Assembly: GCA_044892505.1 (NCBI GenBank)
Contig: CM097882.1
Coordinates: 451,918,001 to 451,982,000, forward strand
Direction: 5' to 3'
From: Schmidtea nova
Lineage: Eukaryota
Length of the DNA stretch: 64,000 nt
The notes beneath the pieces were generated by a model. That model was not told the origin of the DNA. It searched no databases and saw nothing but the letters and a program-made list of their open reading frames with translations. The position numbers were made by a program, and so were the translations under genes. Each line of letters opens with the position of its first letter. Positions within the stretch are counted from its first letter, which is position 1. Below are positions 25,426 to 54,500 of this stretch, piece after piece.

Positions 25426-25805
25426 CAGTCGAATCAAATTTATTATCATGTTGGATCCACCATTTGGTCCACATTTAACATAAAAAATAATAATAAGAAG
25501 AAATAAATAGGAACAAATTAAATGAATATAATTACGAGAAATATCAGTAAAAAACGAATTAAAATGTAATAAAGACTATTAATTTAATATCAAAATTAGA
25601 AGAAAAGTAAATGGAAAATGTAAAAGTGTTAAAGAAAAATGATAGTTAATTATATTTAAATAATAAGAAAGCGAAATAAATAAGTAAAAAAAAGAAGAAG
25701 AATTAATAAAAATTCGGTAAATTAAAACAAGAAAATGAAAATCATATTTGTTAATAAAATTGATTTTATTTTTACTAGAATTGTATTGATGACCATCAGA
25801 TTGAT

Positions 25806-25850
25806 GCTGATTGGTCAATGAACTGATCTGGTCAGTATAAATACTGATCC
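25806..25850 (+). promoter_or_regulatory. LTR promoter: ATTGG (CCAAT box) + TATAAATA at 25836 (copy at 48039)
   Basis: CTGATTGGTCAAT...CAGTATAAATA(C)TGATCCA is conserved with the diverged solo LTR (57381-57426) while the surrounding sequence is not. Confidence 0.7.
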
Positions 25851-26029
25851 AGATTCAGATAATTTCAAGGTAGTTTATGTTACATTTTTTAACGTAAAGT
25901 TATATGCTCTTTTGAATCAAATTTTGCTATTGGAGGTATGCTTATTATTTTTGTTATATATATTTGTGAATTTTGTCATTGCCATTAGCTAAATAAAACT
26001 TCTTTTAAAAATATCTTATTTTTATTAAG

Positions 26030-26382
26030 CTTCTTCCACTGTGTAATCAGTGGAAGGAGATAAAGGTATTCATAGGATTTATCATAATTAAATTAAGCTT
26101 CTTCCACTGTGCAATCAGTGGAAGGAGACGACTCTATTTATATATTTATTTATCCTTTATTGAGCTTCTTCCATCGTGTAATCGGTGGAAGGAGGCAACA
26201 TTGTGTATGATATTAACAATTAGGTTGAAGAATATTTTTATAAACAATTTTTGGGTCGAGCTTCTTCCCCTGTGAAATCAGTGGAAGGAGGCGAATATAT
26301 ATATTATTTATATACAGTAGATACAGTAGAAATTACGTATGATTTAAGGGGCTCCGATCACCGTGCAATCGGTGAAATGGAG
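26030..26382 (+). other. Array of five ~12-bp-stem hairpins with TG(T/C/A)AAT hexaloop (copy at 48233-48585)
   Basis: CTTCTTCCACTG-TGYAAT-CAGTGGAAGGAG at 26030, 26098, 26165, 26261 and a variant at 26352, separated by unique AT-rich spacers. Confidence 0.85.
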
Positions 26383-26853
26383 GCATACTGTGCCGAGTAG
26401 AATGACTGCTCCGTACAGTTGGGCCGTCCGACCGGTGTATAGCGCCGTGAAGAGGGTAGGAATTTTTATTTTAACCATGATTTCTAACCTTATTTTTCAC
26501 TGGATAGTATAACCAGTTGAAGTTTTATTTTATAACCGATTTGATTTTATGAGTTTATAGTTGAGTAGAGTTTGATTTTAGTTTGAGACAGATATAGCTG
26601 CGATCTTATTAACCTGGTTTTACCTTGAGATTCACAGAGTGTTAACGTATATTTTTCGATTGTCACATCTGGGGTTTGTGGGCATAGAGCGGCAGATACA
26701 CGGTTAAGAATTTGTACAAAATACATTTTTTAAATATAACCATTTCAAAAATCGATAATTCAATAGCGTAGTGATCTACTACGCAAGTAACATAACAGCA
26801 ATAGGTTATAGGATCAAACATTCCACATAAATAATTAAATATAATTGCTTATC

Positions 26854-26989
26854 CTGAACCCTGTACATAGGGCAGTAGATCTTAGTTTATTTAACTAATT
26901 TTGTAACCTGATTGCTGTATATAGCACAGGCGTGAATAAATAAAATGTATTAAGAAATAAATGTATCTGATCGCTGTACATAGCGACAG
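26854..26989 (+). other. Array of three bulged hairpins with GTAYAT hexaloop (copy at 49057-49192)
   Basis: CTG-AA-CCCT-GTACAT-AGGG-CAG; CCTG-AT-TGCT-GTATAT-AGCA-CAGG; CTG-A-TCGCT-GTACAT-AGCGA-CAG. Confidence 0.8.
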
Positions 26990-27117
26990 TGTTGAAAGTG
27001 TAATAGGTAAATCATTTTCTTTTCCTGAATTAGCAATTAATAACTGTCAAAAGTATGAGAATCGTTCGAATCAAGACTACCAATTTCATGTTAATAAACC
27101 ATCTTGAATTTTAGAGA

Positions 27118-27711
27118 ATGTCAGCCAACACAGCAACTAATCAAGCCGAATTGGATAAAGCATGGAGGATAATTCGCAGCCTGGAAAAAGAAATGTTACG
27201 GAAATCTGAAAAATTAAAAGAAGCCGATGGCATAATCTCAAACCTGAAGAAAAGCTGGTTCAGTCCAGAGCAGATGAAAACACAAATTATAAAAAATCAA
27301 CGCTCACAGCGAGCAAACGAGGAGATCAAAATGGAATTGGACGCGACGAACATGGAACTAAAGAAATGTCTAAAATCTGTAACGGCGTCGTATTTAACTC
27401 AAGAGCTCAGCCAGCTCATTCGACCAATCACTTATCAGCATTGGGCTGACGAGAAAGCAGGATGCACAAAAGGAACGAACACCGAGGAACCATCTCAGGT
27501 TCGCGCAATAACAATAGCAGCAAGTACACCAAAGAACACGACAAATCCAGAAGGTAAAAGGAAGAAGAAGAGCAAGATGGGAGCGCGCCAGCGTCGCTGG
27601 AAGAAACAAGTTCTTCAGCAATTGGCACCGCAATCAAAAGAAATTCCCGAAATTGATCTAACTATGAACTTTGCAATATCGGATGAAGACATTACCAAAT
27701 ACTTTGAATAG
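27118..27711 (+). CDS. LTR-encoded 197-aa coiled-coil protein with an Arg/Lys-rich motif
   Basis: Intact ORF, identical in both LTRs, with a clear homologue at 59131-59727 (shared KSWF-P--MK, EL-KCL-SVTASY, IRPITYQ-W); basic motif KRKKKSKMGARQRRWKK. Confidence 0.85.
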   Translation: MSANTATNQAELDKAWRIIRSLEKEMLRKSEKLKEADGIISNLKKSWFSPEQMKTQIIKNQRSQRANEEIKMELDATNMELKKCLKSVTASYLTQELSQLIRPITYQHWADEKAGCTKGTNTEEPSQVRAITIAASTPKNTTNPEGKRKKKSKMGARQRRWKKQVLQQLAPQSKEIPEIDLTMNFAISDEDITKYFE

Positions 27712-28311
27712 GAATTCTGTGATTTAGTTATTTTCGCGTATTAAATAATTTTTGTTTTGTATTTATTTTATCGTAAAGTATATGAAATAGAGTGATTTAT
27801 TAAAAATTTAAAATAATTTAAAGGAAAATATAAATTAAATTAACTATACATTAGAATTAACAATAAGATTAACATAAATCTAATAAACAATAGAAACATT
27901 AAAGAGATAATATATTGTAATTGACTAAAGATTATTTGTTGATATTGTAAAGAAGGGGGCTGAAAGAAAAGTTGAAAGTTGAAATATATTGTAAAGAAAA
28001 GGGGGCTAAAGAAACATTGAAATGAAAGATAATGGATGCGGATAGATTAAAGTAAAAGCGTAAGTCCTTCTATCGGCAGCGAGACGAACCCGTGAACATA
28101 AATGGGGAGTAGTTTTAGCAATAGAGCTCACCTGCCCATCATTGTTCAAACACCTTGCACATTTCCAACTCGATTATTACAGGGAAATGATCGAGGGTGC
28201 TCGTGTGATATGTAAGCATTTTATGTGAGGTTTTGGATGGAGGAATCCCTAGAGCGTTTAGTTTAATTTTCTAATTTTGTTTTAACCCAATCCAGACCGA
28301 CAACATAAATT

Positions 28312-28329
28312 TGGAGGCTCAGCCGGGAT
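28312..28329 (+). promoter_or_regulatory. Primer-binding site TGGAGGCTCAGCCGGGAT (most similar to a tRNA-Pro 3' end)
   Basis: Starts TGG 6 nt after the LTR; resembles the animal tRNA-Pro PBS pattern TGGGGGCTCRWCCGGGAT. The tRNA identity is an inference. Confidence 0.75.
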
Positions 28330-28705: not shown

Positions 28706-29167
28706 ATGAACGACAAATTAAAAGAAATAGAAGAATTCTTAAACACGGAAAACAAAACATACGATGAACTATGCGAGAAAATAAGTCGAATAAGAGAATC
28801 CAGATTCAAAGAACCCATGACACAAACTGAAGAGACAACAGAGCTGATAAAAATAATGGAAAGAGTAGACAAAATAGATATAACAACTAGATACAAGTGG
28901 TACCGAACGAGAGTAGAAAATGCTGAGTTAAATATAAAATGCAGACAGTTAGAACAACAATTAACTCCAACATACCACAAGTGGACAATACAAGGAACTG
29001 AGACAGCCAAGAAATTTAAACTCTGTTACATATGTCGAGAAAGAGAGAATAAAATCATGTTTTTACCATGTGGACATTTCCGGTTTTGTGGAATCTGTGC
29101 AGCCAATTGCGACAAATGCCCGATGTGCAATCTCGAAATAGACGAAAGAATTATTGTGTATTTATAA
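28706..29167 (+). CDS. C-terminal RING (IAP/XIAP-type C3HC4) protein, no BIR domain
   Basis: CYICRERENKIMFLPCGHFRFCGICAANCDKCPMCNLEIDERIIVYL at the extreme C-terminus, preceded by coiled coil. Confidence 0.85.
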   Translation: MNDKLKEIEEFLNTENKTYDELCEKISRIRESRFKEPMTQTEETTELIKIMERVDKIDITTRYKWYRTRVENAELNIKCRQLEQQLTPTYHKWTIQGTETAKKFKLCYICRERENKIMFLPCGHFRFCGICAANCDKCPMCNLEIDERIIVYL

Positions 29168-29400: not shown

Positions 29401-29871
29401 AATGAGAGTTGATAAAGGCAATGACAGAAATCATGATAGCAATTGATATTTATAAATAATTTTTGAGCTGCTCACGAGTAGTCCGTTAAGCACCCATTGG
29501 GAGGAACCAACTGATCAACTTACCCGAGATATATAGAAAGGGGCCCATCGCGGAAATTGGAAAGCTTTTGTGATGTGACTGATCACCACATCTTGCATTA
29601 GTAGACCAATGCGATCTTTTTGTATGTTTTGGTTGGGGTGAAAGGTAGGGACAATCTAATGAGGTTTAAGTGCATGCAGAAAATACAAATAAAAAAGAGA
29701 GAATAGAACACTGATCAGTGAAAGTCGAAAGAACATTAAGTAAATAAGTAGAATGAAAGTTAATGTGATAACTCTCATAACAATAGAGATAATTCAGCTG
29801 AATGATAACTAGCGAAGTGGATAATTGCGGTTAACCGGTTAAAGAGATTAGTTAAATACCTTGTATAAAAA

Positions 29872-30577
29872 GGGCAAATAAGCCATATTAGTTACTCTGA
29901 AAGAAGGGTCAAGGGCAAATAAGCCATATTAGTTACTCTGAAAGAAGGGTCAAGGGCAAATAAGCCATATTAGTTACTCTGAAAGAAGGGTCAAGGGCAA
30001 ATAAGCCAGATTAGTTACTCTGAAAGAAGGGTCAAGGGCAAATAAGCCATATTAGTTACTCTGAAAGAAGGGTCAAGGGCAAATAAGCCATATTAGTTAC
30101 TCTGAAAGAAGGGTCAAGGGCAAATAAGCCATATTAGTTACTCTGAAAGAAGGGTCAAGGGCAAATAAGCCATATTAGTTACTCTGAAAGAAGGGTCAAG
30201 GGCAAATAAGCCATATTAGTTACTCTGAAAGAAGGGTCAAGGGCAAATAAGCCATATTAGTTACTCTGAAAGAAGGGTCAAGGGCAAATAAGCCATATTA
30301 GTTACTCTGAAAGAAGGGTCAAGGGCAAATAAGCCATATTAGTTACTCTGAAAGAAGGGTCAAAGGCAAATAAGCCATATTAGTTACTCTGAAAGAAGGG
30401 TCAAGGGCAAATAAGCCATATTAATTACTCTGAAAGAAGGGTCAAGGGCAAATAAGCCATATTAGTTACTCTGAAAGAAGGGTCAAGGGCCAACAAGCCG
30501 TATTAGTTAATTACTCTGAAAGAAGGGTCAAGGGCCAACGAGCCATATTAGTTAATTACTCTGAAAGAAGGGTCAAC
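29872..30577. repeat. 41-bp tandem array (GGGCAAATAAGCCATATTAGTTACTCTGAAAGAAGGGTCAA), 15 near-perfect + 2 variant copies
   Basis: Exact 41-bp period from 29872 to 30487. Confidence 0.95.
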
Positions 30578-30579
30578 GG

Positions 30580-30800
30580 CAACATAAGAATTTGAACCTA
30601 TGATTGCAATAGTGATAGCAACACAAGGAATGTGAACCTGTGATTGCGATTGTGGATAGCAACACAAGGAATGTGAACCTGTGATTGCGATTATGGATAG
30701 CAACATAAGGAATATGAACCTATAGTTGTAATTGTTGAAATTTAGTAAATTTAGCAACCTAAGGAATTTGAACCCAGGTTTGCAATTGTGTGAAATTAAA
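30580..30800. repeat. Second degenerate array with 41-bp period (AAGGAATGTGAACCTGTGATTGCGATTGTGGATAGCAACAC)
   Basis: AAGGAAT recurs at 30625, 30666 and 30707. Confidence 0.75.
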
Positions 30801-31419
30801 TGACAACGAAAGGAATATGAACCTAGAGTTGAAGTCGTCGACGAAGTGAGAATAGTGAGCATTAGAGTTTGAGTAATACGAGTAAAGATGATTAAGTAAA
30901 CTAGAGATACAGTATGCATACAAGTAGAAATAAGAATAGGAGAAATTAGAGTTGACTAGAAATAGTGAGAATAATGAGTAATGATGATACCATGAATAGT
31001 GATAAAATGATAATTGAGTCAGGAGAACTCAAGGGAATTAAAGCGTTTGAGCGACAAATTAAATTGGGAGATTGAGGGAAAAGTAATGAATTTATTTGAT
31101 AACGATAGATAATTATTACGACCATATAGATAATTGTTACCAGTGAATAGATAATTTAAATAGACTTAAATAAAGGGGAAACCGGGAATGGGGAAACAAT
31201 GGAAACCCAATAATGAGGAATAAAAGCGCAACGATAACAATGATGTATCGTTGAAGTGACTTTTTAATTTAGATATACGGAACAGAACAAGTCAAAACAA
31301 CCAACCAATCAATCAGAATACGATAACAGAGAAACAGAAAAATTGATAAATTAAAGAAAAGTAAACCGAGATCAAGAGCAGTTAAAAATCAAGAAGTTAA
31401 TAATTCACAAAGAAATAAA

Positions 31420-34400
31420 TTGAGATCAAGAGCAGTTAGTGCTACAATCGAAAAAGTTGATAATTCACAGAGAAATAAATCGAAACAAAGAGCAACCAGT
31501 GCTACAAAGAAAACAAATCCTAAAGGAAGTAAATCAAGAAGAGTAATAGTAGAAAAGTCAAAAATCGAAAACAGTAAATTAACAAAAACTAACGAAAGTG
31601 AAACAGAAGAAAGTTCAAGTGAAACCTACGATAATTATAATAATACGGAAGCATCAGATAACGAGTCAATAAACACAGAAGAAGTAGAAGCAGAAATTGA
31701 TAATAATTCAAACGAAACGAATAACGAGCATACTAGTGAAACAAGAGGAAACGAGAGTAAAACGACACAAGACAGCGGAATTGAAATGAACGAGCATAAA
31801 GAAGAAATCAAAGATAAATTTACTGGAGAACCATTCAATGGAGATGCCAGCAAGTTGGAAACGTTTTTAAAAGAATTTGGTATATTTGTAGAAGTATGTA
31901 AATGGAAACCAGAAACGATAAGGAGCAGAATTCAGTTATATTTAAAAGACAGTGCGTTAGACTTATATTTAGAAGCTAAAAATTCAGATGATCAACTTGA
32001 TAGTTGGGAAAAGATAAAGAATTTTTTCCAGCAAACGTTTGGAATAAATAAAGTATTAAATGAAGCATTTACAGAATTTTCAATGAGGAAACAAAAAGTT
32101 AATGAATCAAATGCAGTATATGCAAGTGAATTAAAGAAATTGGCTAAATTAGCATTTAATCAAAATAGTCCAATGAGTTCAGAATTAATGGCAGCAATTT
32201 TTGTGGGGGGATTGAGAAGACCCGATATAAGAGCACAAGTTGGATGCCAAGGTTGTAAAACAATAGATGAAGCGTTGGAAATCGCTAACAGATTTGAATT
32301 ACATATGATCGGAAGTGAAGGAAGAATTTACCTAGCAATGGATACGACACAAAATGAACAAGCAATGAAGATAAACAATCATATCCCGAATTCACAACAA
32401 TTAAACCGACCACCACCTCAAAGGAGAAATGAGGGAAACAAAGTACAAAATTTCGGAAACCAAAATAATTATAATACGCAAGGACAGACAAAGCAATGTC
32501 AAACCTGTGGAAAGTTAGGACATTGGCAACAAGAATGTTTCGTGAACTTAAATTGTAAAACGTGTGGAAGAAAAGGACATTCGGAAAATAGATGTTACCA
32601 AAGATCATGTTATAACTGTGGACAACCAGGTCATATGGCAAAGAATTGCCAACAACAAAACAACCAGCTAAGGAATTGGTCGAACAACGGAAATCGACAA
32701 AATTATGCGAATCAACAGAATAACGGAAACCGTCAGAGTTATGGAAATCAACAGAGTAATTATAACCAGAATAAAAGTACCACCAAAGAAATACATTTAT
32801 TACAAGAAGTTCAGAGATTGACAGAGTTAATAAATAATACACCGAGAGGAAATCAACAAACGAATCAACAACAAATGAATATGATGAGAAAAGTAGAAAG
32901 TGAAAACGAACGACTAAATCGAGAAAGTCAAGCACGACATGCTCAAGAATGGGCAAGAATACAAAGAGAAGACGAACAGAAACGACAAGAAAGAGAACGA
33001 CAACCATTGAGAATTAATATGATGAGAGCAACGAATCAAACAAGAGATAACAAAGAAGATATTGAACCAGAAACAAACCGGATAAACCCAAATCCGGAAG
33101 ATGAAGAAAACCAAAAAGAAATAGTACAAGAAAACGAAGAAGTTATTAAACAAAAAAGGATGTTGGTAGTCATGCCAAACGATCATGTATTTCGATTTGA
33201 ATATGATGAAAAAGAGGAAGTAGGAGTATTAATTAATAAAGTAAACAAGACGATTCCGGGAATGACGAAACTACCCCGAGAAGCAATTTTACAGACAGAA
33301 GACGAAGCAGCAATAAAATTGAAACCAACCGACATATGGAAAGATTTAGGAGTACCAATGAATAAAATGAAAGTCACAGTTATCCAGGAAATAGAAGAAA
33401 ATAACGATGAAGAGAAATCAAAACCAGTAACAAAAGTCAAAAGTAGAGCATTGAAGATATTTGAAGAGAGAATCAAACAGAGAAAAGCAATGGAGATAGA
33501 AAAACGAAGAGGCCAAATAGAAGAATCAGGAACCAATGACAAAAAGGAAGGAATACCACAAAAAAATGTACCAGATAAAGTAGAACAGACAGCACTCATT
33601 AATATGTTAAGAAACTTAACTAGAGAATTTTCAGATGTAGAAAGTGACAGTGATGTCAGTAGTTTAGCAGGAGATATGCTAAAAGAACCAGAAAATGAAG
33701 ACAACAAGATAGAAGTAGCGAAGACGCCAGAAAATATACAAATAAAAGAAGATGAAATTCAGAAACTATTAGATAATGCGTTAGAAGTGATTTATAACGA
33801 AGAATTTATTGATAAGAAGCGATATCGAAAATTTATAAGAGCAGTATTCCGAACGAACTATAAAGAACGGTTACAAAGTCGTGAATTAGAGATATTATCA
33901 GGATACGTCGTCAAACTATTAGAAGAACCACTCCACGAATACATAATTTTAATAGAAATAAACGAATGTTCACCAAGAATTTGGATCAAATCTCCATGCA
34001 CGAATGAAATTTATCGATGGGTAGAAGACAGATTGGGAAGTTCGTATAAAAACAAATTTATATATTCAGGAAACGAACTTGTAAGACGAGCAACGCATTT
34101 GGTAGAAACAGGCATATGGCCAGGAGAGATAAAAACATTATCAATATGCGACAATAAGAAAGAGGAGAATTTACAAGAAATTGCAAAGGAAGCAAATATG
34201 TGTTTTGAGATGAGAATTAAACCTCAGTTAGTAGAAAGGAAAGAAAGAATTCTTAGAGAAAATTTAAATTCACTAATAGAACAAATTATTCAACAAATCG
34301 ACAAGAATAGAGAAGAATTAACAAAAACTGAATATGAGAAATTAAAACAATGCATCGAAAATATACGAGATACCAGCCATACGAGACATTCGTCATACAA

Positions 34401-37400
34401 GACTTGGAAAGTGATCGCGAAAATGGGAAAAGCGATGTTTAAACGAGGAGAAATAGGAGATTTGAAAATCAAAGTGAAATTACCAAACGAGGACACAAAA
34501 GAAATTGAAGTAATCGCGGATTGCACAATAGAAGAATTAGTTGATGTTATCAATGAGACTTTATTACAACGGGAAAAAGAAGACGAATTAGAAGACGATA
34601 TCATCATGAAATATAATGAACACGTGCTAGGAGATCATGATGAGAGACGATTATATAAAATTGGCATATGGGATAATTACCAAACAATTCATGTTATCAG
34701 AATGGATGATACACCAAGAGAAACACCAAAAGATGAAAAAAGGAGACAAGAACGTCGAAGAGAAGAGATGCACAAACTAAGACAAATAATAGAAATTTAT
34801 CGAAGATGGCAGATACAGCCAGAATGGGAAAATGTTTTAGGAGAATTAAACTTCAACGAACGCCGATTAATACCAGTAGAGAAACACTGGGAGGTTAAAG
34901 AGAAATGCTGGAAAGCAAAAGGAGGTATATATGAAGAGGAATTTAGACCAGAAATGGAAGACAAATATGAACCAGAAATTAGAAGAGTTTGTATGGTGAC
35001 AAGAAAAGTCATGCCAACAGATTTAGATGGACCAGAAACCGCAGCAATATGGTTAGAAACGCAAAAACGAAAAGCTGACGAACTTATTGAATTACTAAAA
35101 GGAAACGTACAAGGAAAAAGGCGAACGATCAAAGGATTAGCCGAATTCTTTGTAGCAGGCGGCGAAGATATAATCAGTTTAAGAAAAGTAGCCAAGGTAG
35201 TAACAGAATATAAACGAGTTAACGAGTGGTGCCCAGAACAATTAGACAATGTAATCAAGAAATGGAGAAACCAAGAAAACTCCCAAGAACCACCGCAGAA
35301 AATACATTTAAGGATAATATATCCAGATCGAGAAAAAGAAGAACTTTGGGTAAGATTAACCGAAAAGATTCGAGATGTTAAAAAGAGATTAAAATATGAA
35401 CCACCATTTCATCTACAACATCAAGGACGATCACTAGAAAACGATATGGAAATTTGGATAACGCCAGCACAGTTAGAACTGGCAAATACGTTAACAGTAG
35501 ACGCAATAGCAGGTCAACCATTAAAACTTAAAGAGAAAAGAATAAAAGAAAGTGGAGATACTCAGAATCTAAGGAAGACGATGCAGATAAAACCAGGAAC
35601 AAGCGCAAGGCAGTACGAAACAACATCAATTAAAATCCAAGAAAGAACTCGACCACAACCATACGATACAGAAGAAATCTTAACAGACAGTGATGACATG
35701 CTAGAAGAATTAGCAAAATTGACAAAAGAAAAAGGCAATAATATTTTCGAAAGAGTACAAGAGTTACCTACAACATCACAAGCAATCAATACCCAAGATG
35801 AAGTTGAGCAAGAAATAGAGATAGAAGAAGTGAACGAAATCTCTGAAGAAGAAGCAAGAGGAGCAAATACAGAAAAGGAACGATTAACACAAGAAATGGA
35901 AAAATGGTGGGAACAGAGAAATAATGAACCAAGAGATGTTACAGAGGAAACTGGACGAGAAACCAGATTGATTGAAGCAGGTACAACAATGGATAGACGA
36001 CCTAGAGGTAGACCAAAGACTGATCCAGCCAACATAATCAACAAAACTAAAGAGGAAAGGAGACAAGAGAAATGGGAATTATGTTTAAAGAAACTCAACA
36101 AAATAGCAGAAGCAAAAGACCAGGAAATAACGCAAAAATGTCAAGGTGAAGGATGGATATCAAAAACACTAATGGAAATATTGGCGATAATTGATCCAGA
36201 ATTGAAAAAATGGTGGAGAATAAACGAAATAAGCGACAAGGCTAAAGCATTACATAGCGCAATCGCACCAATCTTACCCGAACTGATAAAAGAGAAGACA
36301 AAATCAAGCCATTTAGATTGGCAAGGGACCACAACGTTGATAAAGAGGTTAACTGAAGATGCAGAAAACGATAATAAATATGTGATAGCAATTGCGTATA
36401 CAATTTATAACTTATTAACATTGAGTAGAGGTAATCCAAAATCTATGGCAATAGAGAAACATATCAAAAATACGGCAGGCATCATAGCAAAAGAAATAGA
36501 ACCATACGTCATCAGTAAAGGAGGATGGGAAACATTTGTTAAAACGAATCAAAGAAACAGTCAAGCAAAGAATATGAAAAAGAAATTTGAAGAAATTTTA
36601 GGAGAATTAGAAAAAGAAAAGTCAGGAACAGGAGGTGGAAAACCTTCACTAAACCTGAATTCAATCATAATGATGATATTAATATGGCTAATTAGCGTTG
36701 AAGGAGCAACGGCGTTCGAAGTATTTGATTGCGACCAGATGGCATTAGGAGAAAAATATTCATTAAGAGGAACCGAACAATGCAAAGATGCAACTCCAAC
36801 AGAGCTAAAAGTACTACATAGTAAACAAATATATCACGTATATCAGGAAGCCGACTTAATAAAGACAACAGTTAATGAATGTAAAATATATAAAACAAGA
36901 TTTGCTTTTTATTGTGGACATCGCCACTACTCTGCAATCGTAATGCCAGGAACGGAAAGGGAAGCGATAATGTTACAAGGAGAAGATTGCAATAAATTGT
37001 TCAAACATGGAGAAGTCGAAACAAGAGATCGAATAAAGATAAGAGGAAAAGCTGGAGTAATACTACAACAAACATATTATGTAGCAGGAGCTATCACAGG
37101 AGGAGAAGGTTACTGTCAAGGAGCAACATATCCAATATTTGGAGTACCAGCAACTAACCTGGTAGTAATCGACACATACACGGTAGAATTAAAAGCGTAT
37201 GAAGCATATTTTGACCCAGCTACAGGAGAAATGAAGACGTTATCAATGTGCAAAATTGAAGCCAGTACTTGTCAAACCGGTATGTCAACTTTAACATACA
37301 GAGCAAAAGCAAATGAATGCCAATTACAATTATTAAAGGAAGCGGAGTTCGACGAGGTACAAGGAAAAATCTTTCAGGAAGAATATGATGATGAAGTAGC

Positions 37401-40400
37401 AAGAGGAAAACGTCTACAGGAGACAGTAAAAGGAGAGAAACCGTTCACAACTAAAGTACAAGAAAAAGAGGTGAGGATGAGGGAGACGCCAACAGTATTG
37501 GTTACATCAAACGCAAATATAGGAATGAGGTTTGTAAAAGGAAAACCGACATTAAAATGTGGTGTTTCTATGTTAGAAACGAATTACCCAGGTATTTATG
37601 TATCAAGACAAGCAGCACCAAATGCAAAACCCAAGGTAGATACTACAGACATCAAATTACACGTATATTTAAATAACAAATTGGATTTTTTATTTCACAA
37701 AGGCCAAGCATCAATGGAGAAAATATACTACGATCTCATTAACAGCGACTGTATATTGAACAGAGAAATATTAAAGACGAAATTAGCAGTAGCAATTACA
37801 AACCCGGATAGTGCTATGCCATTATTACCACTTAACGAAGGTCATTTTGGAAGAGTAGTTGGAGAAGTTATGTACGTATATATATGTCGAAAGACACAGG
37901 CAAACGTAGCAACAACGACCAGAATACGACAAGGACAATGTACCAATGAATTGGAAATTGAATATAAAGGGAAAATAAGATATGTACAACCAGTGACAAG
38001 GATCATTAATCCGGTCAGTTTTGAACCAAACCCTTTCAATTGCAGTAACGCATACGGACCACTATATCAGAAACCAGACGGAAATTGGGTCATGTTTCCG
38101 TCAAAATCAGAAGTACAACCACCTAGAGAATTTGAATTGATGCAACTTTCAAAAGGACGAAAATTTTCCAATATAGATGTAAATAATGGAGGAATTTACA
38201 GTGCAAAAGATCTCGAAGCAGCACGACAAAATATATTATTTCCAGCTAGGAGAGAAGCAGTATTATCTAGCATCGTAACGATAACAGGAGGAACAAGTTA
38301 TCAAGGAGGACCAAATTATGAATTATTACTGTCACCAGCACACTTTAGGAAAGCAACAGAAAATATGATGAAAGCAATGTGGGGACGATTTTTAATTTTC
38401 GGACAAATGATGGCCGGAATACTAGGTGTAATTTTAATCATACAAATAATACGAGTGATAATCACACAAATGCTAGCATGCTTTGATATTTATAAAAGAG
38501 AAAAGAAAGTTAATTGGAAATTAATAGCAGGATTTTTACCATTTTTAGCAAAAACGATGGTGTTACATGGTCACTCCAAAGATATTCACAGAATAAAACG
38601 ATTATTAAAAATACTGGCAAAAATGAAAGGAACGGATGAAGACGTGGGAAGAAAATTCAAAAAGATAATGACAGATGAACAAGCGAGACTACAATTAAAA
38701 AGAGAAAGAAAAGGATTATGGGAAAGAATAAGAGGAGATAAAACTCAAGATGATTCCAGTGATGACGATGATAACAATGACGACTGCGAAGGAGGGCAAA
38801 GGTACAGAAACCAAGCACCGCAATATAGCGACAAGAATCCAGCAGAAGCATGGAAATGTCACGCACCTCCACCAACAATGTACCAAGAACCATTACAGGT
38901 ATCAGGACACAGAGCAATGCAAATGATGCCAATGACAACTTTATATCCAATTATACCAGAAGATTATAAACTTAGACGATGTAGAAGTATGGATCCGCAA
39001 GACGATTCACTCACAATTGCAGTCATGACATCAAATATAGGACCAGTATTAACTACAACTATAGAAATAAATGGAAAAGAAATAGAAGCGATGATAGATA
39101 CAGGAGCAAATATTTCGGCGATAGATATCAAATGGATACCGCAAGAACAGAGACAAGAAATCGAAAGAACAAATGTTCATGTAATCGCATGTAGCAAAGA
39201 GATAGTTGAAGTTGCAGGAAGATGGTGGATAAAAATACGACACCAAAATATAGAAATCGAAACGTATGTAGCAGTAATACCAGCTTTAAGCGTACCATGT
39301 ATAATCGGAACAGATTTAATGCCAACACTATTTAAAGAAATAATCATCGATCTTGGAACAATGAGATTAAAGGACAGAACAGGGAAAATATGTGCTATGG
39401 AAGCAAAAGTAATAAACTCGAAACAAATAATGATACCGGAAGAAAGAATCATGACGAGATCACAAACAGTCAGAATAAATATGCTCAGAGCAGAGGAAAT
39501 TAACACAACTAGTCAAGTAGAAAGTGAGAAAATCGATGTTGACAAAGAAATCGTACGAAAAGCCAAAGAAATAAACGAAAGATGGGAAATCAGACAAGAA
39601 AAAGACGTATTATGGGATATACGACAAATAATTAGTGATTACGCACGAGGATGCCCAACCAAACCAATCATAATAGAATTACTAAAGAAAATACCAGAGA
39701 TACTCGTATTACAAGATACAGGAAGTGCAACTGCACTACACAATGCCATAAGTTGGGGTAAAACGGAAAAAGTAAAAGAATTTTTGAAAATAGCAAAAGA
39801 AACGAATCAAAATCTAGACATTGTAAATCGAGAATTAGAAACGCCAATGATGACAGCAACACTAAGCTTAGCAGATAAAGAAATAGTAGATATGCTGATC
39901 AACGCAGAATTCAACTGGACAGCTCGTGATAGAAGAGGAAACACAGTTTTAAACCATGCAATAATGAGTGAAAATCAAATGATACTAAAACATATAACAA
40001 CCAACCTCACATGGGAAATCGATGAATTAATCAAAGGAGAAATTATGAAGGAAGCGATTCGGAAAGGAAACACTAAAACCATATGGAAACTAATACAATG
40101 GAAATGGCCGAATAATAAAACATGGGTATTAGATATAAACAAAGAATTTAGCGAAGGACAGAACGCGCTATTGAGATACTTATTAGAGTTTACGTGCGAT
40201 CAGAGAACAATGTTAGCACTAATAAATAGAGGAAAAATAAATATTAGTAAAAACGAAGAGGAATATAAACTAGAAGTCGAAAAGAAAGCGTTATTCAGGA
40301 AAATTTGGATATGGTGTCAAAAACAACTACGCAAAGACATAAGCTACAAAAATCTAAATGATTTCCAAGAAAAGTATAAAACGATAATAAAGGAATACAA

Positions 40401-40656
40401 GAAGCTAGTGGAGATATTAAACGATCCAGAAAAATTTAATCAAGCAATAAATCAGAAAGAAGAAGAAAGTAAAAGGATACTCACACCATTGTTCAACGCG
40501 AAGCTAGATTACCAAGAAAGATTAGATGCAATACACAAAAAAGCAAAGGAACTATTACCAGAATTCAAAAATACTAAATACGCCTTGGAAATACTTGGCG
40601 CGATAGTAGAAAAGTACACGCGTACGCGAAAGGAATATATAATGGAAACGACATAA
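31420..40656 (+). CDS. 3078-aa polyprotein: Gag - 3x CCHC - ubiquitin-like domains - AT-hook - Bcl-2-like - signal/TM - chuvirus-type fusion glycoprotein - TM - retropepsin - ankyrin repeats; true start uncertain
   Basis: Gag FNGDASKLETFLKEF..QLYLKDSALD; CQTCGKLGHWQQEC, CKTCGRKGHSENRC, CYNCGQPGHMAKNC; RRPRGRPK; EPYVISKGGWETFV; VEGATA|FEVFDC; FGQMMAGILGVILII; AMIDTGANISAI..IIGTDLM; TALHNAISWG, RGNTVLNHAI. The frame is open from 31327, but the first ATG is about 120 codons in. Confidence 0.92.
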   Translation: MRSRAVSATIEKVDNSQRNKSKQRATSATKKTNPKGSKSRRVIVEKSKIENSKLTKTNESETEESSSETYDNYNNTEASDNESINTEEVEAEIDNNSNETNNEHTSETRGNESKTTQDSGIEMNEHKEEIKDKFTGEPFNGDASKLETFLKEFGIFVEVCKWKPETIRSRIQLYLKDSALDLYLEAKNSDDQLDSWEKIKNFFQQTFGINKVLNEAFTEFSMRKQKVNESNAVYASELKKLAKLAFNQNSPMSSELMAAIFVGGLRRPDIRAQVGCQGCKTIDEALEIANRFELHMIGSEGRIYLAMDTTQNEQAMKINNHIPNSQQLNRPPPQRRNEGNKVQNFGNQNNYNTQGQTKQCQTCGKLGHWQQECFVNLNCKTCGRKGHSENRCYQRSCYNCGQPGHMAKNCQQQNNQLRNWSNNGNRQNYANQQNNGNRQSYGNQQSNYNQNKSTTKEIHLLQEVQRLTELINNTPRGNQQTNQQQMNMMRKVESENERLNRESQARHAQEWARIQREDEQKRQERERQPLRINMMRATNQTRDNKEDIEPETNRINPNPEDEENQKEIVQENEEVIKQKRMLVVMPNDHVFRFEYDEKEEVGVLINKVNKTIPGMTKLPREAILQTEDEAAIKLKPTDIWKDLGVPMNKMKVTVIQEIEENNDEEKSKPVTKVKSRALKIFEERIKQRKAMEIEKRRGQIEESGTNDKKEGIPQKNVPDKVEQTALINMLRNLTREFSDVESDSDVSSLAGDMLKEPENEDNKIEVAKTPENIQIKEDEIQKLLDNALEVIYNEEFIDKKRYRKFIRAVFRTNYKERLQSRELEILSGYVVKLLEEPLHEYIILIEINECSPRIWIKSPCTNEIYRWVEDRLGSSYKNKFIYSGNELVRRATHLVETGIWPGEIKTLSICDNKKEENLQEIAKEANMCFEMRIKPQLVERKERILRENLNSLIEQIIQQIDKNREELTKTEYEKLKQCIENIRDTSHTRHSSYKTWKVIAKMGKAMFKRGEIGDLKIKVKLPNEDTKEIEVIADCTIEELVDVINETLLQREKEDELEDDIIMKYNEHVLGDHDERRLYKIGIWDNYQTIHVIRMDDTPRETPKDEKRRQERRREEMHKLRQIIEIYRRWQIQPEWENVLGELNFNERRLIPVEKHWEVKEKCWKAKGGIYEEEFRPEMEDKYEPEIRRVCMVTRKVMPTDLDGPETAAIWLETQKRKADELIELLKGNVQGKRRTIKGLAEFFVAGGEDIISLRKVAKVVTEYKRVNEWCPEQLDNVIKKWRNQENSQEPPQKIHLRIIYPDREKEELWVRLTEKIRDVKKRLKYEPPFHLQHQGRSLENDMEIWITPAQLELANTLTVDAIAGQPLKLKEKRIKESGDTQNLRKTMQIKPGTSARQYETTSIKIQERTRPQPYDTEEILTDSDDMLEELAKLTKEKGNNIFERVQELPTTSQAINTQDEVEQEIEIEEVNEISEEEARGANTEKERLTQEMEKWWEQRNNEPRDVTEETGRETRLIEAGTTMDRRPRGRPKTDPANIINKTKEERRQEKWELCLKKLNKIAEAKDQEITQKCQGEGWISKTLMEILAIIDPELKKWWRINEISDKAKALHSAIAPILPELIKEKTKSSHLDWQGTTTLIKRLTEDAENDNKYVIAIAYTIYNLLTLSRGNPKSMAIEKHIKNTAGIIAKEIEPYVISKGGWETFVKTNQRNSQAKNMKKKFEEILGELEKEKSGTGGGKPSLNLNSIIMMILIWLISVEGATAFEVFDCDQMALGEKYSLRGTEQCKDATPTELKVLHSKQIYHVYQEADLIKTTVNECKIYKTRFAFYCGHRHYSAIVMPGTEREAIMLQGEDCNKLFKHGEVETRDRIKIRGKAGVILQQTYYVAGAITGGEGYCQGATYPIFGVPATNLVVIDTYTVELKAYEAYFDPATGEMKTLSMCKIEASTCQTGMSTLTYRAKANECQLQLLKEAEFDEVQGKIFQEEYDDEVARGKRLQETVKGEKPFTTKVQEKEVRMRETPTVLVTSNANIGMRFVKGKPTLKCGVSMLETNYPGIYVSRQAAPNAKPKVDTTDIKLHVYLNNKLDFLFHKGQASMEKIYYDLINSDCILNREILKTKLAVAITNPDSAMPLLPLNEGHFGRVVGEVMYVYICRKTQANVATTTRIRQGQCTNELEIEYKGKIRYVQPVTRIINPVSFEPNPFNCSNAYGPLYQKPDGNWVMFPSKSEVQPPREFELMQLSKGRKFSNIDVNNGGIYSAKDLEAARQNILFPARREAVLSSIVTITGGTSYQGGPNYELLLSPAHFRKATENMMKAMWGRFLIFGQMMAGILGVILIIQIIRVIITQMLACFDIYKREKKVNWKLIAGFLPFLAKTMVLHGHSKDIHRIKRLLKILAKMKGTDEDVGRKFKKIMTDEQARLQLKRERKGLWERIRGDKTQDDSSDDDDNNDDCEGGQRYRNQAPQYSDKNPAEAWKCHAPPPTMYQEPLQVSGHRAMQMMPMTTLYPIIPEDYKLRRCRSMDPQDDSLTIAVMTSNIGPVLTTTIEINGKEIEAMIDTGANISAIDIKWIPQEQRQEIERTNVHVIACSKEIVEVAGRWWIKIRHQNIEIETYVAVIPALSVPCIIGTDLMPTLFKEIIIDLGTMRLKDRTGKICAMEAKVINSKQIMIPEERIMTRSQTVRINMLRAEEINTTSQVESEKIDVDKEIVRKAKEINERWEIRQEKDVLWDIRQIISDYARGCPTKPIIIELLKKIPEILVLQDTGSATALHNAISWGKTEKVKEFLKIAKETNQNLDIVNRELETPMMTATLSLADKEIVDMLINAEFNWTARDRRGNTVLNHAIMSENQMILKHITTNLTWEIDELIKGEIMKEAIRKGNTKTIWKLIQWKWPNNKTWVLDINKEFSEGQNALLRYLLEFTCDQRTMLALINRGKINISKNEEEYKLEVEKKALFRKIWIWCQKQLRKDISYKNLNDFQEKYKTIIKEYKKLVEILNDPEKFNQAINQKEEESKRILTPLFNAKLDYQERLDAIHKKAKELLPEFKNTKYALEILGAIVEKYTRTRKEYIMETT

Positions 40657-40673: not shown

Positions 40674-43600
40674 ATGCCAGTTGCGTTTTTATTAACAAAA
40701 GAAAGAATAATGCCGATTCATAGAGCATTGAGAGCAGGAAAAGACAGTAAAGTAATCGAAATCGCAAGATTAATGCATCAATGTGGATGTGATATGAATA
40801 TGATAGATGAAAAAGGAGACACCCTCATGGTATACGCAGCAAGAGCAAAAACAAAAATCAAAGTATTAGAAGAGTTATATAAAGCAGGCGCAGGATTAAT
40901 CGGAAAAACTGTCAAAGACAACTCAATATTAGACGTGACATTATTAGGTCCAAACTGGGAAATGTTGAATTTCATTAAAACGATAACAAACCAAGAAGAG
41001 ATAGATTATTTAACAGAAACCGTAAAAGGACCAAGCGTATTGACAATGATGCAAAACATCAAATTGACAGAAGAAGTATTAAACTGGAAAATACCAAATA
41101 CAAATAAACCAGCATTTAAAGTTAACAAGTTTATGGAGAAAAATCGAAATTGGTGTATCCAAAGCGCACTAATAACTTATATATGGCCCGAAATTGTAGA
41201 AATTTTTATGAGAAGAGAAGACCTGAGATTTACAAACAAGCCTAAAGAAACGGAAAAGGTAGTTAAATGGAAAGAATTGATGAAAACACACCTTCAAAGA
41301 TGGATAAAAGCCAAGAAAGAAATTATACAGTATCAGTTAGACAACAAAAAGATACCCGAAGATATAGAATTCCAAGAATTCGAAGCAAGTAATTTAACAT
41401 CACTATATTATGCAAAACTAATAGAAACAAGTAATGTCGAGGACGACATTTTTAACGAGCCAGGGAGAGATAATAATACTGACAATGACGATGACGATGA
41501 AGAAAACAAGGACGACGAGAGAAATAATGACGACGAAAGAAATAAAGACGATGATGATGATCACGGAAACCCAGATAACCACGAACAAACCAACAAAGAA
41601 GACGAGAATCAAGAGAGAAATACAAAGAACCACGAATCCAAAGAACAAAGAGAAGACAACCCTAAAAACAATCATGAAAAGAAAGGAACAAGTTACAGAA
41701 GGAATCCATTATTCAGACCAGAAGTATTAATGTTCGCACTAATCATAACATTTATGGGACAATGTGAAGCAACGGAACAAGAGATATCAGTAGAAATGGA
41801 AATACCAATACAAAAAGCATCAACGCAAATAATGAATTCAAAGGATATTGAACAAGTATGTTGGGTAAAAGAGAATGAAATTCTCGGAGATAACAACCTA
41901 TTACGATGTATAATACCAAACCCCGAGCGAAAAACCATAATAGTAGACGAAATGGATATGGAGACATGGTACAGAATATGTACTATCAGAAAACCCAAGG
42001 ACGAAAAATCACACAAAATAGTTACATGCCAAGTATACAAGACACCCAAAGTTCGATACGAGTTCGCCAATGGAATAGACCTTCCAGGACCATTTTATTT
42101 TAAAATAACAAGAGAACCAGCATCAAGAAAAGTCTTACAACCACCAAGAACCAAGATAACAACACCAAGTATAAGGAATACAACGGATAAACCAGAAGCA
42201 AACGGAAGAAATACAACGGTTAAACCAGAACCAAAAAGACGAACGAAACAAACCACAAGAGTAATCTATAACTCCAAGTTGTTATGTATAGCACTTATTA
42301 TGACAATACTGAAGCGATTGGAAGAAGGGATAGAAATGGATACAATGACATTAATAGACATGGAAGAGACACGAATGACAAATCAAAAATGTTGGTTTAG
42401 AAACGATGAAAAATTAGAATTAAAGGAATCAAGAGAAATTCGAAAATTGGAAGCGAGTAAAACGAACAAAGTAATCAAGATAATAAAGATAAAAACAGAC
42501 AGAATTCATAAACTATGTTTATTGGAAAAAGAGAGAAACAAGAAAGGAATAACCAATTGTAAAACATCCCAAGCAGGGAAAATAATAACGTTTGCAAGAA
42601 AGATGGGGAAAAGAAACAAACAAAATTTCCAGAAATTAACCATAACGTTAGAAATGACGGGAATAGAACAAAACGTAAAAGGAGTATGCTGGAGAAAATA
42701 CGAGAAAGAAGCGAACAAACACAAATCAGCACAATGTCAAACAGTTGTTAGAGGAACAACTGCAGTGCAAATAAAAAGCTTAGAAAGAAATCAAACGTAT
42801 GAAATATGCCTAGTAAAAGAAAATGATCAAATAACGAAAGAAGATTTAGAATGCAGAATATACAAAGCACCGAACAGAGTAAAAACCATTAAAGCAATAC
42901 GAAAGAATAAAAGACAACAAAAACCGAAGCATACCACTACCGAAAGTCAAACAGAACCAGAGAGAAAAACCTCAGCAACACTTATACTTTGGAAATTGGA
43001 TGACAAAACAGTAGAAATATGTTGGTCAATGATCAAGAAATACGAAGAAAGACAACCACAACAATGCGAAAAGATGAATAAAGAAGAGGAGATCAGAATT
43101 CAGAACCTACAATTGGACAAACAATACGAAATATGCGCAATAGAGAAGACAGATAAATTCGGAAACCAGCAAGAAAAATGTGGAAACTACTATACACCGA
43201 CAAATACAACGATCAAAGGAAGAATCAAGAAACTAACTTTCGGAGAACTCAATCAAACAACGAAACAAATGGAAAACGAGGAAGCAATAATAGATTCTTA
43301 TGCCAAATGGAAACCAGAAAAAGTAATCCATGAAGTCAAAAGGAAACAACAAGAACGACAACAATTGGAACTCAAATTAAAAGGACAATATGGACCAATG
43401 ATTAATCAAAGCAAATTCACCCAAATCAATATTAACAAACAAGGAAGAGAACTAATTGGAGTAGGAATATTGGCAGTATGCGTACCAATAATAATAATAT
43501 TATCAATAATATGGTTATGGGACATAATAAAAAAGAAACCAACCAGACAATGGCCAGATATAAAGATCATGAATTGTAAAATCAAAATACCTGAAGAAGT

Positions 43601-43697
43601 GAAGAAAGAATTCCAAAGAAGAACCAAAGGCAAAGAATTTTGGAAGCAAATAGAAGACGAGGAGCGACACGATGAAAAAGCAGTGATGATAGTATAG
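40674..43697 (+). CDS. 1007-aa protein: ankyrin repeats - acidic D/N/E linker - hydrophobic signal/TM - four FN3-like Cys/Trp repeats - C-terminal TM
   Basis: MPIHRALRAG, KGDTLMVYAARA (ankyrin); four repeats CW..C..(I)xxLxxxxxYxIC..C; TM LIGVGILAVCVPIIIILSIIWLW followed by KKK. Confidence 0.8.
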   Translation: MPVAFLLTKERIMPIHRALRAGKDSKVIEIARLMHQCGCDMNMIDEKGDTLMVYAARAKTKIKVLEELYKAGAGLIGKTVKDNSILDVTLLGPNWEMLNFIKTITNQEEIDYLTETVKGPSVLTMMQNIKLTEEVLNWKIPNTNKPAFKVNKFMEKNRNWCIQSALITYIWPEIVEIFMRREDLRFTNKPKETEKVVKWKELMKTHLQRWIKAKKEIIQYQLDNKKIPEDIEFQEFEASNLTSLYYAKLIETSNVEDDIFNEPGRDNNTDNDDDDEENKDDERNNDDERNKDDDDDHGNPDNHEQTNKEDENQERNTKNHESKEQREDNPKNNHEKKGTSYRRNPLFRPEVLMFALIITFMGQCEATEQEISVEMEIPIQKASTQIMNSKDIEQVCWVKENEILGDNNLLRCIIPNPERKTIIVDEMDMETWYRICTIRKPKDEKSHKIVTCQVYKTPKVRYEFANGIDLPGPFYFKITREPASRKVLQPPRTKITTPSIRNTTDKPEANGRNTTVKPEPKRRTKQTTRVIYNSKLLCIALIMTILKRLEEGIEMDTMTLIDMEETRMTNQKCWFRNDEKLELKESREIRKLEASKTNKVIKIIKIKTDRIHKLCLLEKERNKKGITNCKTSQAGKIITFARKMGKRNKQNFQKLTITLEMTGIEQNVKGVCWRKYEKEANKHKSAQCQTVVRGTTAVQIKSLERNQTYEICLVKENDQITKEDLECRIYKAPNRVKTIKAIRKNKRQQKPKHTTTESQTEPERKTSATLILWKLDDKTVEICWSMIKKYEERQPQQCEKMNKEEEIRIQNLQLDKQYEICAIEKTDKFGNQQEKCGNYYTPTNTTIKGRIKKLTFGELNQTTKQMENEEAIIDSYAKWKPEKVIHEVKRKQQERQQLELKLKGQYGPMINQSKFTQININKQGRELIGVGILAVCVPIIIILSIIWLWDIIKKKPTRQWPDIKIMNCKIKIPEEVKKEFQRRTKGKEFWKQIEDEERHDEKAVMIV

Positions 43698-44155: not shown

Positions 44156-44251
44156 TCAAATTGTAGCGGAAAATTGTATATATGTAAAAATAAAACTCTA
44201 GAAAAATCAAAAACAAAGAACAAATCAATGTGTGTATATATTATTGTAGAA

Positions 44252-45607
44252 ATGGATAAAGAGGAACGAGCAGTCGAGATTTTGAGAGCAGCAAACAGAA
44301 ATTGGAACAAGAGATTTGTATGTGGATATTGTAATAATTTATTACGGAAACCAAAGCAAACCGCCTGTGGATGTAGATTATGCACCAGATGTGTACAAAT
44401 GTTAGAACTAAAGAAAATAACAGAATGTCCAGAATGTAAAGAAGGACAAATAGTATTAGACGAAACAAGACCAGATAGAGCAACTCAGAGAGAAATCATG
44501 AGCATATTAATTGAATGTATAAATCCACCGTGCATATGGCAAGGACAAATCAGCGAAATTGAAAATCATATAGAAAATTGTGAAGAAAAGAGAAGCGAAT
44601 GTGAAAAGTGTAAAGAAACGATAATTTTAAAAGACAAAGAGAAACACAGAGGTGAATGCAAAGAGGAAGAAATCGCATGTGAATATTGCGAAATTCGAGA
44701 AACAAGGAGAAAATTTGAAGAGGAGCACATCAATATAAAAGAAGAGAGAATATGCGAACAGTATGTAGGAGTGTGCCCAAACAAATGTGAAATTACCGAA
44801 GAAGTGAAATTACGAGAACATTGGGAAAAGTGTACAGAAATACCAAGAGAATGTCCTTACAACAGATATGGATGCAAGGAAAAGAAGTCTCAACAAAATA
44901 TGAAACAACATTTAGAAACAGAAGCAATCAATCATATTGAAATGACAGACAGAACAATTCAGAAATTAGAAAAAGAAGTGGAATCTCATAAAATAATGAT
45001 GAACCTATTATTAGAAACGAGAGAACAGTTTGAATTAACCCGAAGAAAGATGGAAAAGAAAATAATAGCCATCAAGGAATTAGCAAAAGGAATGAAAGTG
45101 CAATATAACAAGTTAATACAAGAAATTGATGAGAAAAAAGATTTACCAATAGCACCTTATGTGTGGAAAATAACGGATTTCCGAAATAAATTGGAAGATG
45201 CACGAAGCTTCAAGAAAACTGCGGTAATAAGCCCACCATTTTACTTATGGAAAAACGGGGCTAAAGTGAGATTGAAAGTATACCCAAACGGAGATGGGAC
45301 AAGTATTGGAAAACACGTATCGATATTTTTTGCGTTTTGCAAAGGAGAATATGACGATTTAATCGATTGGCCGATAGGAGTAGGAGTAATGATAAAAATC
45401 AGGGGTTTAAACGAGACCATAGAAAAGAGATTCACGACAGAAAAAGGAGCAGTTACGAGTAACAGACCAACAGAAGAATGTGGATTAGCAAGTGGAGAAC
45501 CACACTTTGTATTACAAAGCAAGATATGGGGATTATTGTATGAGGACACCTTATACATAGAAATGGAAAGGAACGAGAAGGCAGATAGAAAAGGATGGTT
45601 GGCGTAG
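44252..45607 (+). CDS. TRAF-family protein (RING, TRAF zinc fingers, coiled coil, MATH/TRAF-C), intronless
   Basis: CGYCNNLLRKPKQTACGCRLCTRC..CPEC; C-N--C-W-G-----E-H---C; PYVWKITDF..ISPPFY....AKVRLKVYPNGDG...GKHVSIFF..KGEYDDLIDWP. The likely ATG is 44252 (alternative 44228; the frame is open from 44174). Confidence 0.95.
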   Translation: MDKEERAVEILRAANRNWNKRFVCGYCNNLLRKPKQTACGCRLCTRCVQMLELKKITECPECKEGQIVLDETRPDRATQREIMSILIECINPPCIWQGQISEIENHIENCEEKRSECEKCKETIILKDKEKHRGECKEEEIACEYCEIRETRRKFEEEHINIKEERICEQYVGVCPNKCEITEEVKLREHWEKCTEIPRECPYNRYGCKEKKSQQNMKQHLETEAINHIEMTDRTIQKLEKEVESHKIMMNLLLETREQFELTRRKMEKKIIAIKELAKGMKVQYNKLIQEIDEKKDLPIAPYVWKITDFRNKLEDARSFKKTAVISPPFYLWKNGAKVRLKVYPNGDGTSIGKHVSIFFAFCKGEYDDLIDWPIGVGVMIKIRGLNETIEKRFTTEKGAVTSNRPTEECGLASGEPHFVLQSKIWGLLYEDTLYIEMERNEKADRKGWLA

Positions 45608-51560: not shown

Positions 51561-51633
51561 ATAATAATAATAATTATTATTATTATCAATAATTCTCATA
51601 ATGATGACTATAGATCAAAATTTTTTTTTAAAC

Positions 51634-51675
51634 AATACCACAATATTTCGGCACAGCCTTTATCAAGTGTGTATT
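51634..51675 (-). ncRNA. Inverted copy of the pLTR hammerhead ribozyme
   Basis: Reverse complement of 54501-54542. Confidence 0.65.
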
Positions 51676-53400: not shown

Positions 53401-54417
53401 ATGAACTTTATAGAATCTAAGATCATATCTTTTTTTGGGGACAAAATACTTTTCTGGAAACGATACATCGACGACATCTTCATAGTCTCCACAATCCCTC
53501 TCAATCAAATCCTATCACACACAAATTCTAATAAGACCAACATACAATTCACTTTTGAAACACCGAACACAGAAGGTAAAATACCGTTTTTAGATACCAT
53601 GGTAAGTTTCACAAAAGGCCAAGATACACTAAATGCAAACACCGAGCAATATTCTAAAAGTTTACATAGCGGTCATATCCTCCCATGGAAAAGCCACGTT
53701 CCACTTCAACGCAAAATCGCATTACTAATAGGAGAAAGAAAAAGAGCCATAAGAAACTGTTCAGACGCAAACAAAATACAAGAAACATTAGAAAACTTCA
53801 AAATACGATTCCTTCAAAATGGATACCCTGAAGAATTTGTAAAGAAATATTTCCTTAACGAACCATACCACAATAAATGCAACAATAGGAAACGCCAGAA
53901 ACACAATAACAATAACAAACACACAACATATCTAAGATTACCTTTCCTAAATGACATTACAGCCAACAAAATCACCAACATTTTTAATCAAACAGATTTG
54001 CCTATCCACATCCGTTCAACGTTCATAACCTCCGCACCGTTAAAATCACAACTCCGAAAGCCACCAATTTCCAACATCTCCAAACATAAATGTCTTTGCC
54101 ATTCCACAACCCAATGCTTTTGCTTTTCCAAAAATATAGTATATAAACTTTCTTGTCAAAAATGTGACGCTACTTACATAGGAGAAACACATAGAACTTT
54201 TCACACCCGACTTAATGAACACACTAAAAACAAAACCAGTAACTCTTACGAACACTGGGAGAAAGTACATAAAACAACTCCATCTATAGAAGAAACAAAA
54301 TGCCAGATTCTACAAGAGGGATTCAAAAATTCATTACAAAGATTAGCTTCCGAGACTTTTTACATAAAAAATACAAACGTCCATCAACATTCAATTCGCA
54401 CAAAAAAATTAAAATAA
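53401..54417 (+). CDS. C-terminal part of the Penelope RT + GIY-YIG ORF (upstream part broken by a stop)
   Basis: YIDDIF, GKIPFLDT, YIGETHRTFHTRLNEH. Confidence 0.85.
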   Translation: MNFIESKIISFFGDKILFWKRYIDDIFIVSTIPLNQILSHTNSNKTNIQFTFETPNTEGKIPFLDTMVSFTKGQDTLNANTEQYSKSLHSGHILPWKSHVPLQRKIALLIGERKRAIRNCSDANKIQETLENFKIRFLQNGYPEEFVKKYFLNEPYHNKCNNRKRQKHNNNNKHTTYLRLPFLNDITANKITNIFNQTDLPIHIRSTFITSAPLKSQLRKPPISNISKHKCLCHSTTQCFCFSKNIVYKLSCQKCDATYIGETHRTFHTRLNEHTKNKTSNSYEHWEKVHKTTPSIEETKCQILQEGFKNSLQRLASETFYIKNTNVHQHSIRTKKLK

Positions 54418-54500
54418 ATTTTTTCATCCAATAAAATCATTTTAAAATATAAAAAAATAATTAAGGTTACTATTTAGGATTAAGTTAATATAACGATTGA

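Follow-up and report, generated by a model that had tools for sequence, protein, structure and literature searches.

In the Burro elements of planarians, env is an in-frame segment that follows gag and precedes pol (PMC6431247), and a GAG-ENV-POL order with an HSV gB-type env is given, in the available passages of PMC13524379, for Ty3/gypsy errantiviruses of Nematoda, Bryozoa and Platyhelminthes. Burro / GYPSM1 elements are described as having a giant ORF with Gag and CCHC knuckles, a mononegavirus-like in-frame env and long LTRs, together with ubiquitin-like and BCL2-like motifs, ankyrins, and MATH/TRAF and RING cargo (PMC6431247), and all of these but the BCL2-like motif recur in the element reported here, the ubiquitin-like one as a weak match; for the BCL2-like motif there are matches below threshold. 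A further system of interest is ERVK[2-1-LTR] of cattle, whose C and D types are an autonomous/non-autonomous pair according to the available passages of PMC10924933, which also cite MusD/ETn, IAP and KoRV/RecKoRV.

Our locus lies in a stretch of 64,000 nucleotides from Schmidtea nova, which as a whole is called the window below. When set module by module against the description in PMC6431247 (Burro1-4 / GYPSM1 were compared by description only), it was found to have the N-terminal Gag with CCHC knuckles, the in-frame Env of mononegaviral type, the Ank, MATH and RING cargo, the giant size and the multi-kb LTRs of Burro. With the GAG-ENV-POL errantiviruses it shares, as far as the passages of PMC13524379 go, a chuvirus/gB-class Env between gag and pol and the Ty3/gypsy affiliation; that survey left out pairs of LTRs with a spacing above 14 kb, and its available passages are silent on Burro, in-frame fusion and deleted forms. 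Because of PMC6431247 and of what is available of PMC13524379, the headline fusion, which the first-pass annotation had set against the separate, spliced env ORF after pol of retroviruses and errantiviruses, is already in print and not unprecedented, and our locus is a further example of a published arrangement. Unlike Burro as described in PMC6431247, however, the window copy lacks the RT, RNase H and integrase of its own that an autonomous errantivirus has, and its TRAF module is a downstream accessory ORF.

Results

A single frame from Gag to ankyrin

On the + strand, a frame of 3,109 codons with no N extends from stop to stop between 31,327 and 40,656, and the open frame and the order of Pfam matches (Table 1) agree that Gag, Env, protease and ankyrin modules are fused without a stop, as had been claimed from the first look at this DNA. 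A length of 3,078 aa had been claimed for it; the frame is indeed stop-free to 40,656, that product begins at a TTG (position 31,420), and its end is specific to this copy. The first in-frame ATG, at 31,786, gives a product of 2,956 aa. The 153 codons ahead of it are open in 53 of 55 copies and equal in length in one sister family, and the true start of the frame may be non-AUG or lie further upstream. An acceptor-like site near 31,272 was seen in both families compared. At the other end, the stop at 40,656 is missing in 18 of 18 comparable copies (20 were taken, two truncated ones being left out as non-comparable), which read into a 1,007-aa ORF at 40,674; a frame of 4,108-4,140 codons is uninterrupted in 8 of the 20. 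A Pfam search of the window copy's ORFs found no RT, RNase H or integrase.

Table 1. Features of the element and its polyprotein frame, in window positions (residue numbers are those of the 3,078-aa frame)
Feature	Position	Strand	Basis or remark
5' LTR (TG...CA), flanked 5' by target-site duplication ATCA	25449..28305	+	LTR comparison
Primer-binding site, complementary to tRNA-Pro(TGG) 3' end	28312..28329	+	One difference from other copies
Accessory ORF, 153 aa, RING finger at C-terminus	28706..29167	+	zf-C3HC4_3, E 1e-11
Tandem repeat array in leader, 41-nt unit	29870..30590	+	
153 open codons upstream of the Gag ATG, without ATG	31327..31785	+	Includes TTG 31,420
Gag: capsid-like domain and three CCHC-type knuckles	31786..32670	+	Pfam: Retrotrans_gag, residues 173-266, E 3e-4 (below cut-off); zf-CCHC, E 2e-9
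Env module (middle region, helical segment, signal peptide, Env, TM, tail), removed in env-less copies	33560..38950	+	
All-helical segment with BH2-like motif; Bcl-2-like weakly supported	36061..36600	+	Sequence and structure searches
Predicted internal signal peptide preceding Env	36658..36714	+	Hydropathy
Env ectodomain, ~556 aa, 14 Cys, one RGKR furin-like site	36715..38380	+	Pfam: Monjiviricetes_fusion (PF24664), E 6e-71
Env transmembrane helix	38407..38463	+	Hydropathy
Aspartic protease (DTG)	39058..39327	+	Pfam: RVP, residues 2547-2636, E 2e-8
Junction of in-frame deletion removing RT, RNase H, integrase (~3,021 nt)	39421..39437	+	Pol-bearing copies
Ankyrin repeats; normal place downstream of integrase	39736..39990	+	Pfam: Ank_2, residues 2773-2857, E 8e-9; pol-bearing copies
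Copy-specific frame break (mutation or assembly error)	40600..40656	+	Copy comparison
Polyprotein remainder in other copies: ankyrin, acidic linker, signal-peptide-like stretch, four Cys-patterned repeats, C-terminal TM	40674..43697	+	Pfam, hydropathy
Accessory TRAF-like ORF: RING, TRAF zinc finger, MATH	44228..45607	+	MATH_2, E 1e-20; zf-TRAF, E 4e-8
Two more accessory ORFs, 256 and 187 aa	45944..47455	+	No informative Pfam match
3' LTR, then target-site duplication ATCA	47649..50507	+	LTR comparison

The fusion is kept in other copies, a point that the first-pass annotation had wanted checked. The stretch from Gag to protease is open in 17 of 37 env-bearing copies and broken in the remaining 20 at scattered places, and Gag, Env, protease and RT likewise share one frame in two sister families of the same genome, which have 74% and ~41% protein identity to the window family. 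Of the database homologues returned, all 11 hold Gag-like, Env and protease segments in this order within one protein, with RT and integrase present in nine of them. Two or more protease-like domains in one polyprotein were noted in homologues P0002, P0004, P0006 and P0007. The possibility that P0002, which has Gag, Bcl-2, Env, two proteases and ankyrin but lacks RT, is a pol-less element of independent origin was dropped, since it is without DNA context and since in P0008 ankyrin precedes protease and RT.

Loss of pol and env

Copies that bear pol are 96-97% identical to the window outside this region and have ~3,021 nt extra at window position 39,430, which code for RT, RNase H and integrase and have the ankyrins next to them downstream; it is thus in these copies, and not in the window copy, that protease, RT, RNase H and integrase stand in gypsy order in a single frame. 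The order gag-env-pro-ankyrin is therefore not the native one, since in complete copies RT, RNase H and integrase lie between protease and ankyrin, and the ankyrins directly follow the protease in the window copy because pol was deleted. In each of the 21 copies in which it was measured, the env deletion comprises either 5,385 or 5,388 nt and keeps the frame, and the pol junctions keep the window's frame in 55 of 55 measured; this check was based on distance, a motif-based version having given 18/21 and 53/58 with the misses due to motif mismatches. Another pol deletion, distinct from the shared one, likewise keeps the frame. The shared env and pol deletions both map to short imperfect direct repeats, and GT-AG ends are absent from both.

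Exact junction matches numbered at least 49 for the pol-less against at least 12 for the pol-bearing state, and at least 23 for the env-less and 49 for the env-bearing state, with controls at 0 in each case. A DNA search with RT found at least 17 family copies; among the matches listed, 14 copies were at 97% identity or more and three at 91-94%, with a gap down to 87%. After markers had been matched up by their positions and ambiguous loci inspected in sequence, 77 of 82 candidates could be classified (five were left out) into at least 7 env+pol+, 45 env+pol-, 11 env-pol+ and 14 env-pol- copies, counts that are lower bounds as they derive from exact patterns and the best 40 matches. One of the env-pol- copies arose by a different deletion. 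Of 48 pol-less loci besides the window, 45 were covered in full tiles.

Age, recombination and selection

Both LTRs of the window copy (~2.86 kb) are 99.86% identical over 2,861 nt, and the element measures 25.06 kb, or ~28 kb with pol. Among 20 copies, an LTR pair was found in 17, with an identity of 99.79-100% in these, for some of them over part of the LTR, and 4-bp target duplications flank 7 of 8 testable copies, from which it follows that pol-less copies inserted recently and separately. Each of the three env-junction variants is present in both pol-bearing and pol-less copies (n=17), and a single deletion could be the ancestor of all three. The forms are interleaved on a gag tree built from 55 copies. 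Among the 37 env-bearing copies, four-gamete incompatibility increases with distance, being 0.50 below 100 bp and 0.71 above 4 kb, and recurrent mutation contributes to it, since the value is 0.50 already at short range. Such mosaic sequences may be read as the outcome of co-packaging and template switching, by analogy with what has been argued for bovine ERVK. For variants shared among 34 env+ pol-less copies, dN/dS ranges between 0.02 and 0.23 by region (Env ectodomain 0.08, Gag 0.08, protease 0.05). Because the copies recombine, these low values are not assignable to the pol-less form, and they may be inherited from complete copies.

Env, membrane topology and the helical segment

Signal peptides and TM helices were assigned by hydropathy and sequence pattern. 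Ahead of the Env N-terminus, the window and all 11 homologues have a hydrophobic, signal-peptide-like stretch with small residues, and one strong TM follows the ectodomain in the window frame. The TM region is the best-conserved part across families, with 97% and 86% identity in the two sister families. Given this one TM, the protease, which does lie after the Env TM and tail as first annotated, would be back on the cytosolic side, and processing of the polyprotein by signal peptidase and its own protease, in the flavi/alphavirus manner proposed by the first-pass annotation, is likely on these sequence grounds; on that proposal Gag and Env would be equimolar. A short recurring word (for example INML, ICAM or IAVM) occurs at 32,872; 33,010; 33,595; 34,984; 39,013; 39,385 and 39,472. 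Words of this type adjoin all the deletion ends and are candidate protease sites. Two or more hydrophobic segments follow integrase in 8 of 9 integrase-bearing homologues, the window's downstream ORF being likewise endowed, and the C-terminal part of the polyprotein is predicted to be a second type-I membrane protein. An FN3-like match in this part, with a score of 0.84, is to be taken as a lead only. A search of viral contigs found no relatives of Env.

The Bcl-2-like module proposed at first is a different matter, as what stands is a helical segment with a BH2-like motif, kept in five sequences, for which Bcl-xL tops the lists, while no threshold was reached in the window copy. The best sequence matches are to Bcl-xL at E 0.1-0.9, below threshold; the Pfam Bcl-2 match in homologue P0002 has an E value of 0.0015. 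Predicted models were poor, with a pLDDT of 43.5 from the single sequence and of 54.3 from a five-row alignment, and the best Foldseek matches were again to Bcl-xL, at E 0.07 or worse. A second structure aligner returned generic helical bundles and no Bcl-2 chain in its top 50, and a look-up in the Atlas gave nothing useful for this segment.

Other features of the window

Tandem tRNA-Pro(TGG) genes form an array with a 308-nt period from G000:C1:459,609,707 onward, with 1,111 pattern matches genome-wide, and the arrayed tRNA is likely the primer tRNA of the element. Ubiquitin-like cargo is represented in the element by a weak match (E 0.006-0.06). Each LTR contains a 197-aa ORF (27,118-27,711 and 49,321-49,914) and four spaced copies of a hairpin-like 63-nt repeat (26,012-26,305 and 48,215-48,508). 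A 198-aa ORF at 59,131-59,727 looks similar to the LTR ORF; next to it, at 59,959-60,152, is a stretch that matches the LTR at 82% and probably belongs to a related one. Another element occupies 51,603-54,575. It has an RT-like ORF (E 1e-5), a direct repeat of 831 nt and an inverted repeat of 480 nt, and may be Penelope-like, given a putative GIY-YIG-type motif. A single 553-aa ORF at 60,861-62,522 resembles a TGF-beta type I receptor kinase, with GS motif and kinase.

Discussion

Our results are best explained, with a probability that we put at about 80%, if the frame is the polyprotein gene of a giant Ty3/gypsy element of the Burro type that lost RT, RNase H and integrase in frame and borrows these enzymes, and it is likely that the window copy spread with enzymes taken from complete relatives. 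In such an element, translation of Gag and cargo would begin in the cytosol, the chain would enter the ER at the internal signal peptide, where a cut by signal peptidase would free Env, and past the Env TM it would be back in the cytosol, the element's own protease cutting elsewhere. Close to the C-terminus, another signal peptide with its TM would then yield the second type-I membrane protein. As for the deleted forms, the deletions may have arisen where short repeats let the template be switched; the RNAs of the various forms would be co-packaged and recombine, and only deletions that keep the frame would spread.

It could also be that the forms divide the labour, so that the Burro family has split into complementing and reassorting genomes with drop-out modules that replace the complete element. 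Env-only and pol-only forms would then complement each other, and pol-less copies would provide a surplus of Gag and Env unobtainable by frameshifting, as complete frames have no frameshift or stop between Gag and Pol. If this were true, it would be a step towards a bipartite retrovirus encoded in the host genome, the env-only form giving envelope and surplus capsid and the pol-only form the enzymes. Pol is in fact absent in 45 of 52 env-bearing copies and env in 11 of 18 pol-bearing ones (nominal Fisher p 0.008, a value inflated because the copies are non-independent), and the shared deletions all keep the frame and all leave the protease. However, at least 14 copies without env and pol have also spread, and the sister families are complete on both protease sides in 29/30 and 30/30 copies (59/60 in total; these were 30 of the 40 matches listed for each family, ranked by likeness to a complete copy and hence biased to its kin). 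As these families are nearly all complete, single-frame Burro elements spread without deleted helpers, and we regard a division of labour as unlikely. The deleted forms are more likely passengers, whose frame would be kept for translation acting in cis or for RNA stability, than a needed device for stoichiometry.

Splicing offers another account, in which the fusion exists in DNA only, spliced RNAs serve to express the modules, and reverse transcription of splice products has given the deleted forms. Other errantiviruses do splice env, and the acceptor-like site directly upstream of the frame in two families is what such an account would call for. Against this, both deletions map to imperfect direct repeats and, as they have no GT-AG ends, splicing was rejected as their source; donor-like motifs are few within the frame, two having been found, and the frame itself is conserved across families at 41% and 74% protein identity, which makes this account quite improbable. 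An assembly artefact joining unrelated repeats, although a sequencing error could explain the copy-specific break near 40.6 kb, is refuted for fusion and deletions alike and deserves next to no credence in view of the dozens of loci at which copies stand separately, the LTR pairs flanked by target duplications, the homologues known from other assemblies, and env-less joints in the contigs of two of three public runs (from a single study, possibly the one behind the assembly).

Returning to a Burro-type element with borrowed enzymes, its deleted forms resemble the ERVK[2-1-LTR] pair of cattle, as presented in the available passages of PMC10924933, in that defective copies outnumber complete ones, recombination is seen by four-gamete analysis and trans-complementation is supposed. 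In those passages the bovine D-type has no intact ORF, however, whereas the deleted Burro forms keep one open polyprotein from which whole modules are gone, and all four combinations of env and pol occur here. The Burro section of PMC6431247, moreover, says nothing of two traits of this family: in-frame pol-less and env-less forms dominate in it, and its polyprotein closes with a second predicted membrane protein. A search of titles, abstract openings and passages returned no paper on deleted Burro forms, although Grohme 2018, Lee 2026 and supplements may hold such descriptions. What is new here is a recombining family of four forms with in-frame env and pol drop-outs, a modest addition to a known architecture.

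These four in-frame forms show where one module ends and the next begins in a polyprotein of 5,000 aa, for which the literature examined gives no map of processing, and they indicate that an element can lose env and its cargo and still go on inserting. RNA and proteomic data could ask which form supplies the capsid, the envelope and the enzymes. Burro1, as cited in the available passages of PMC13465017, is reported to support planarian stem cells, and because of this reported role the release of Burro cargo would be of interest to the planarian stem-cell field.
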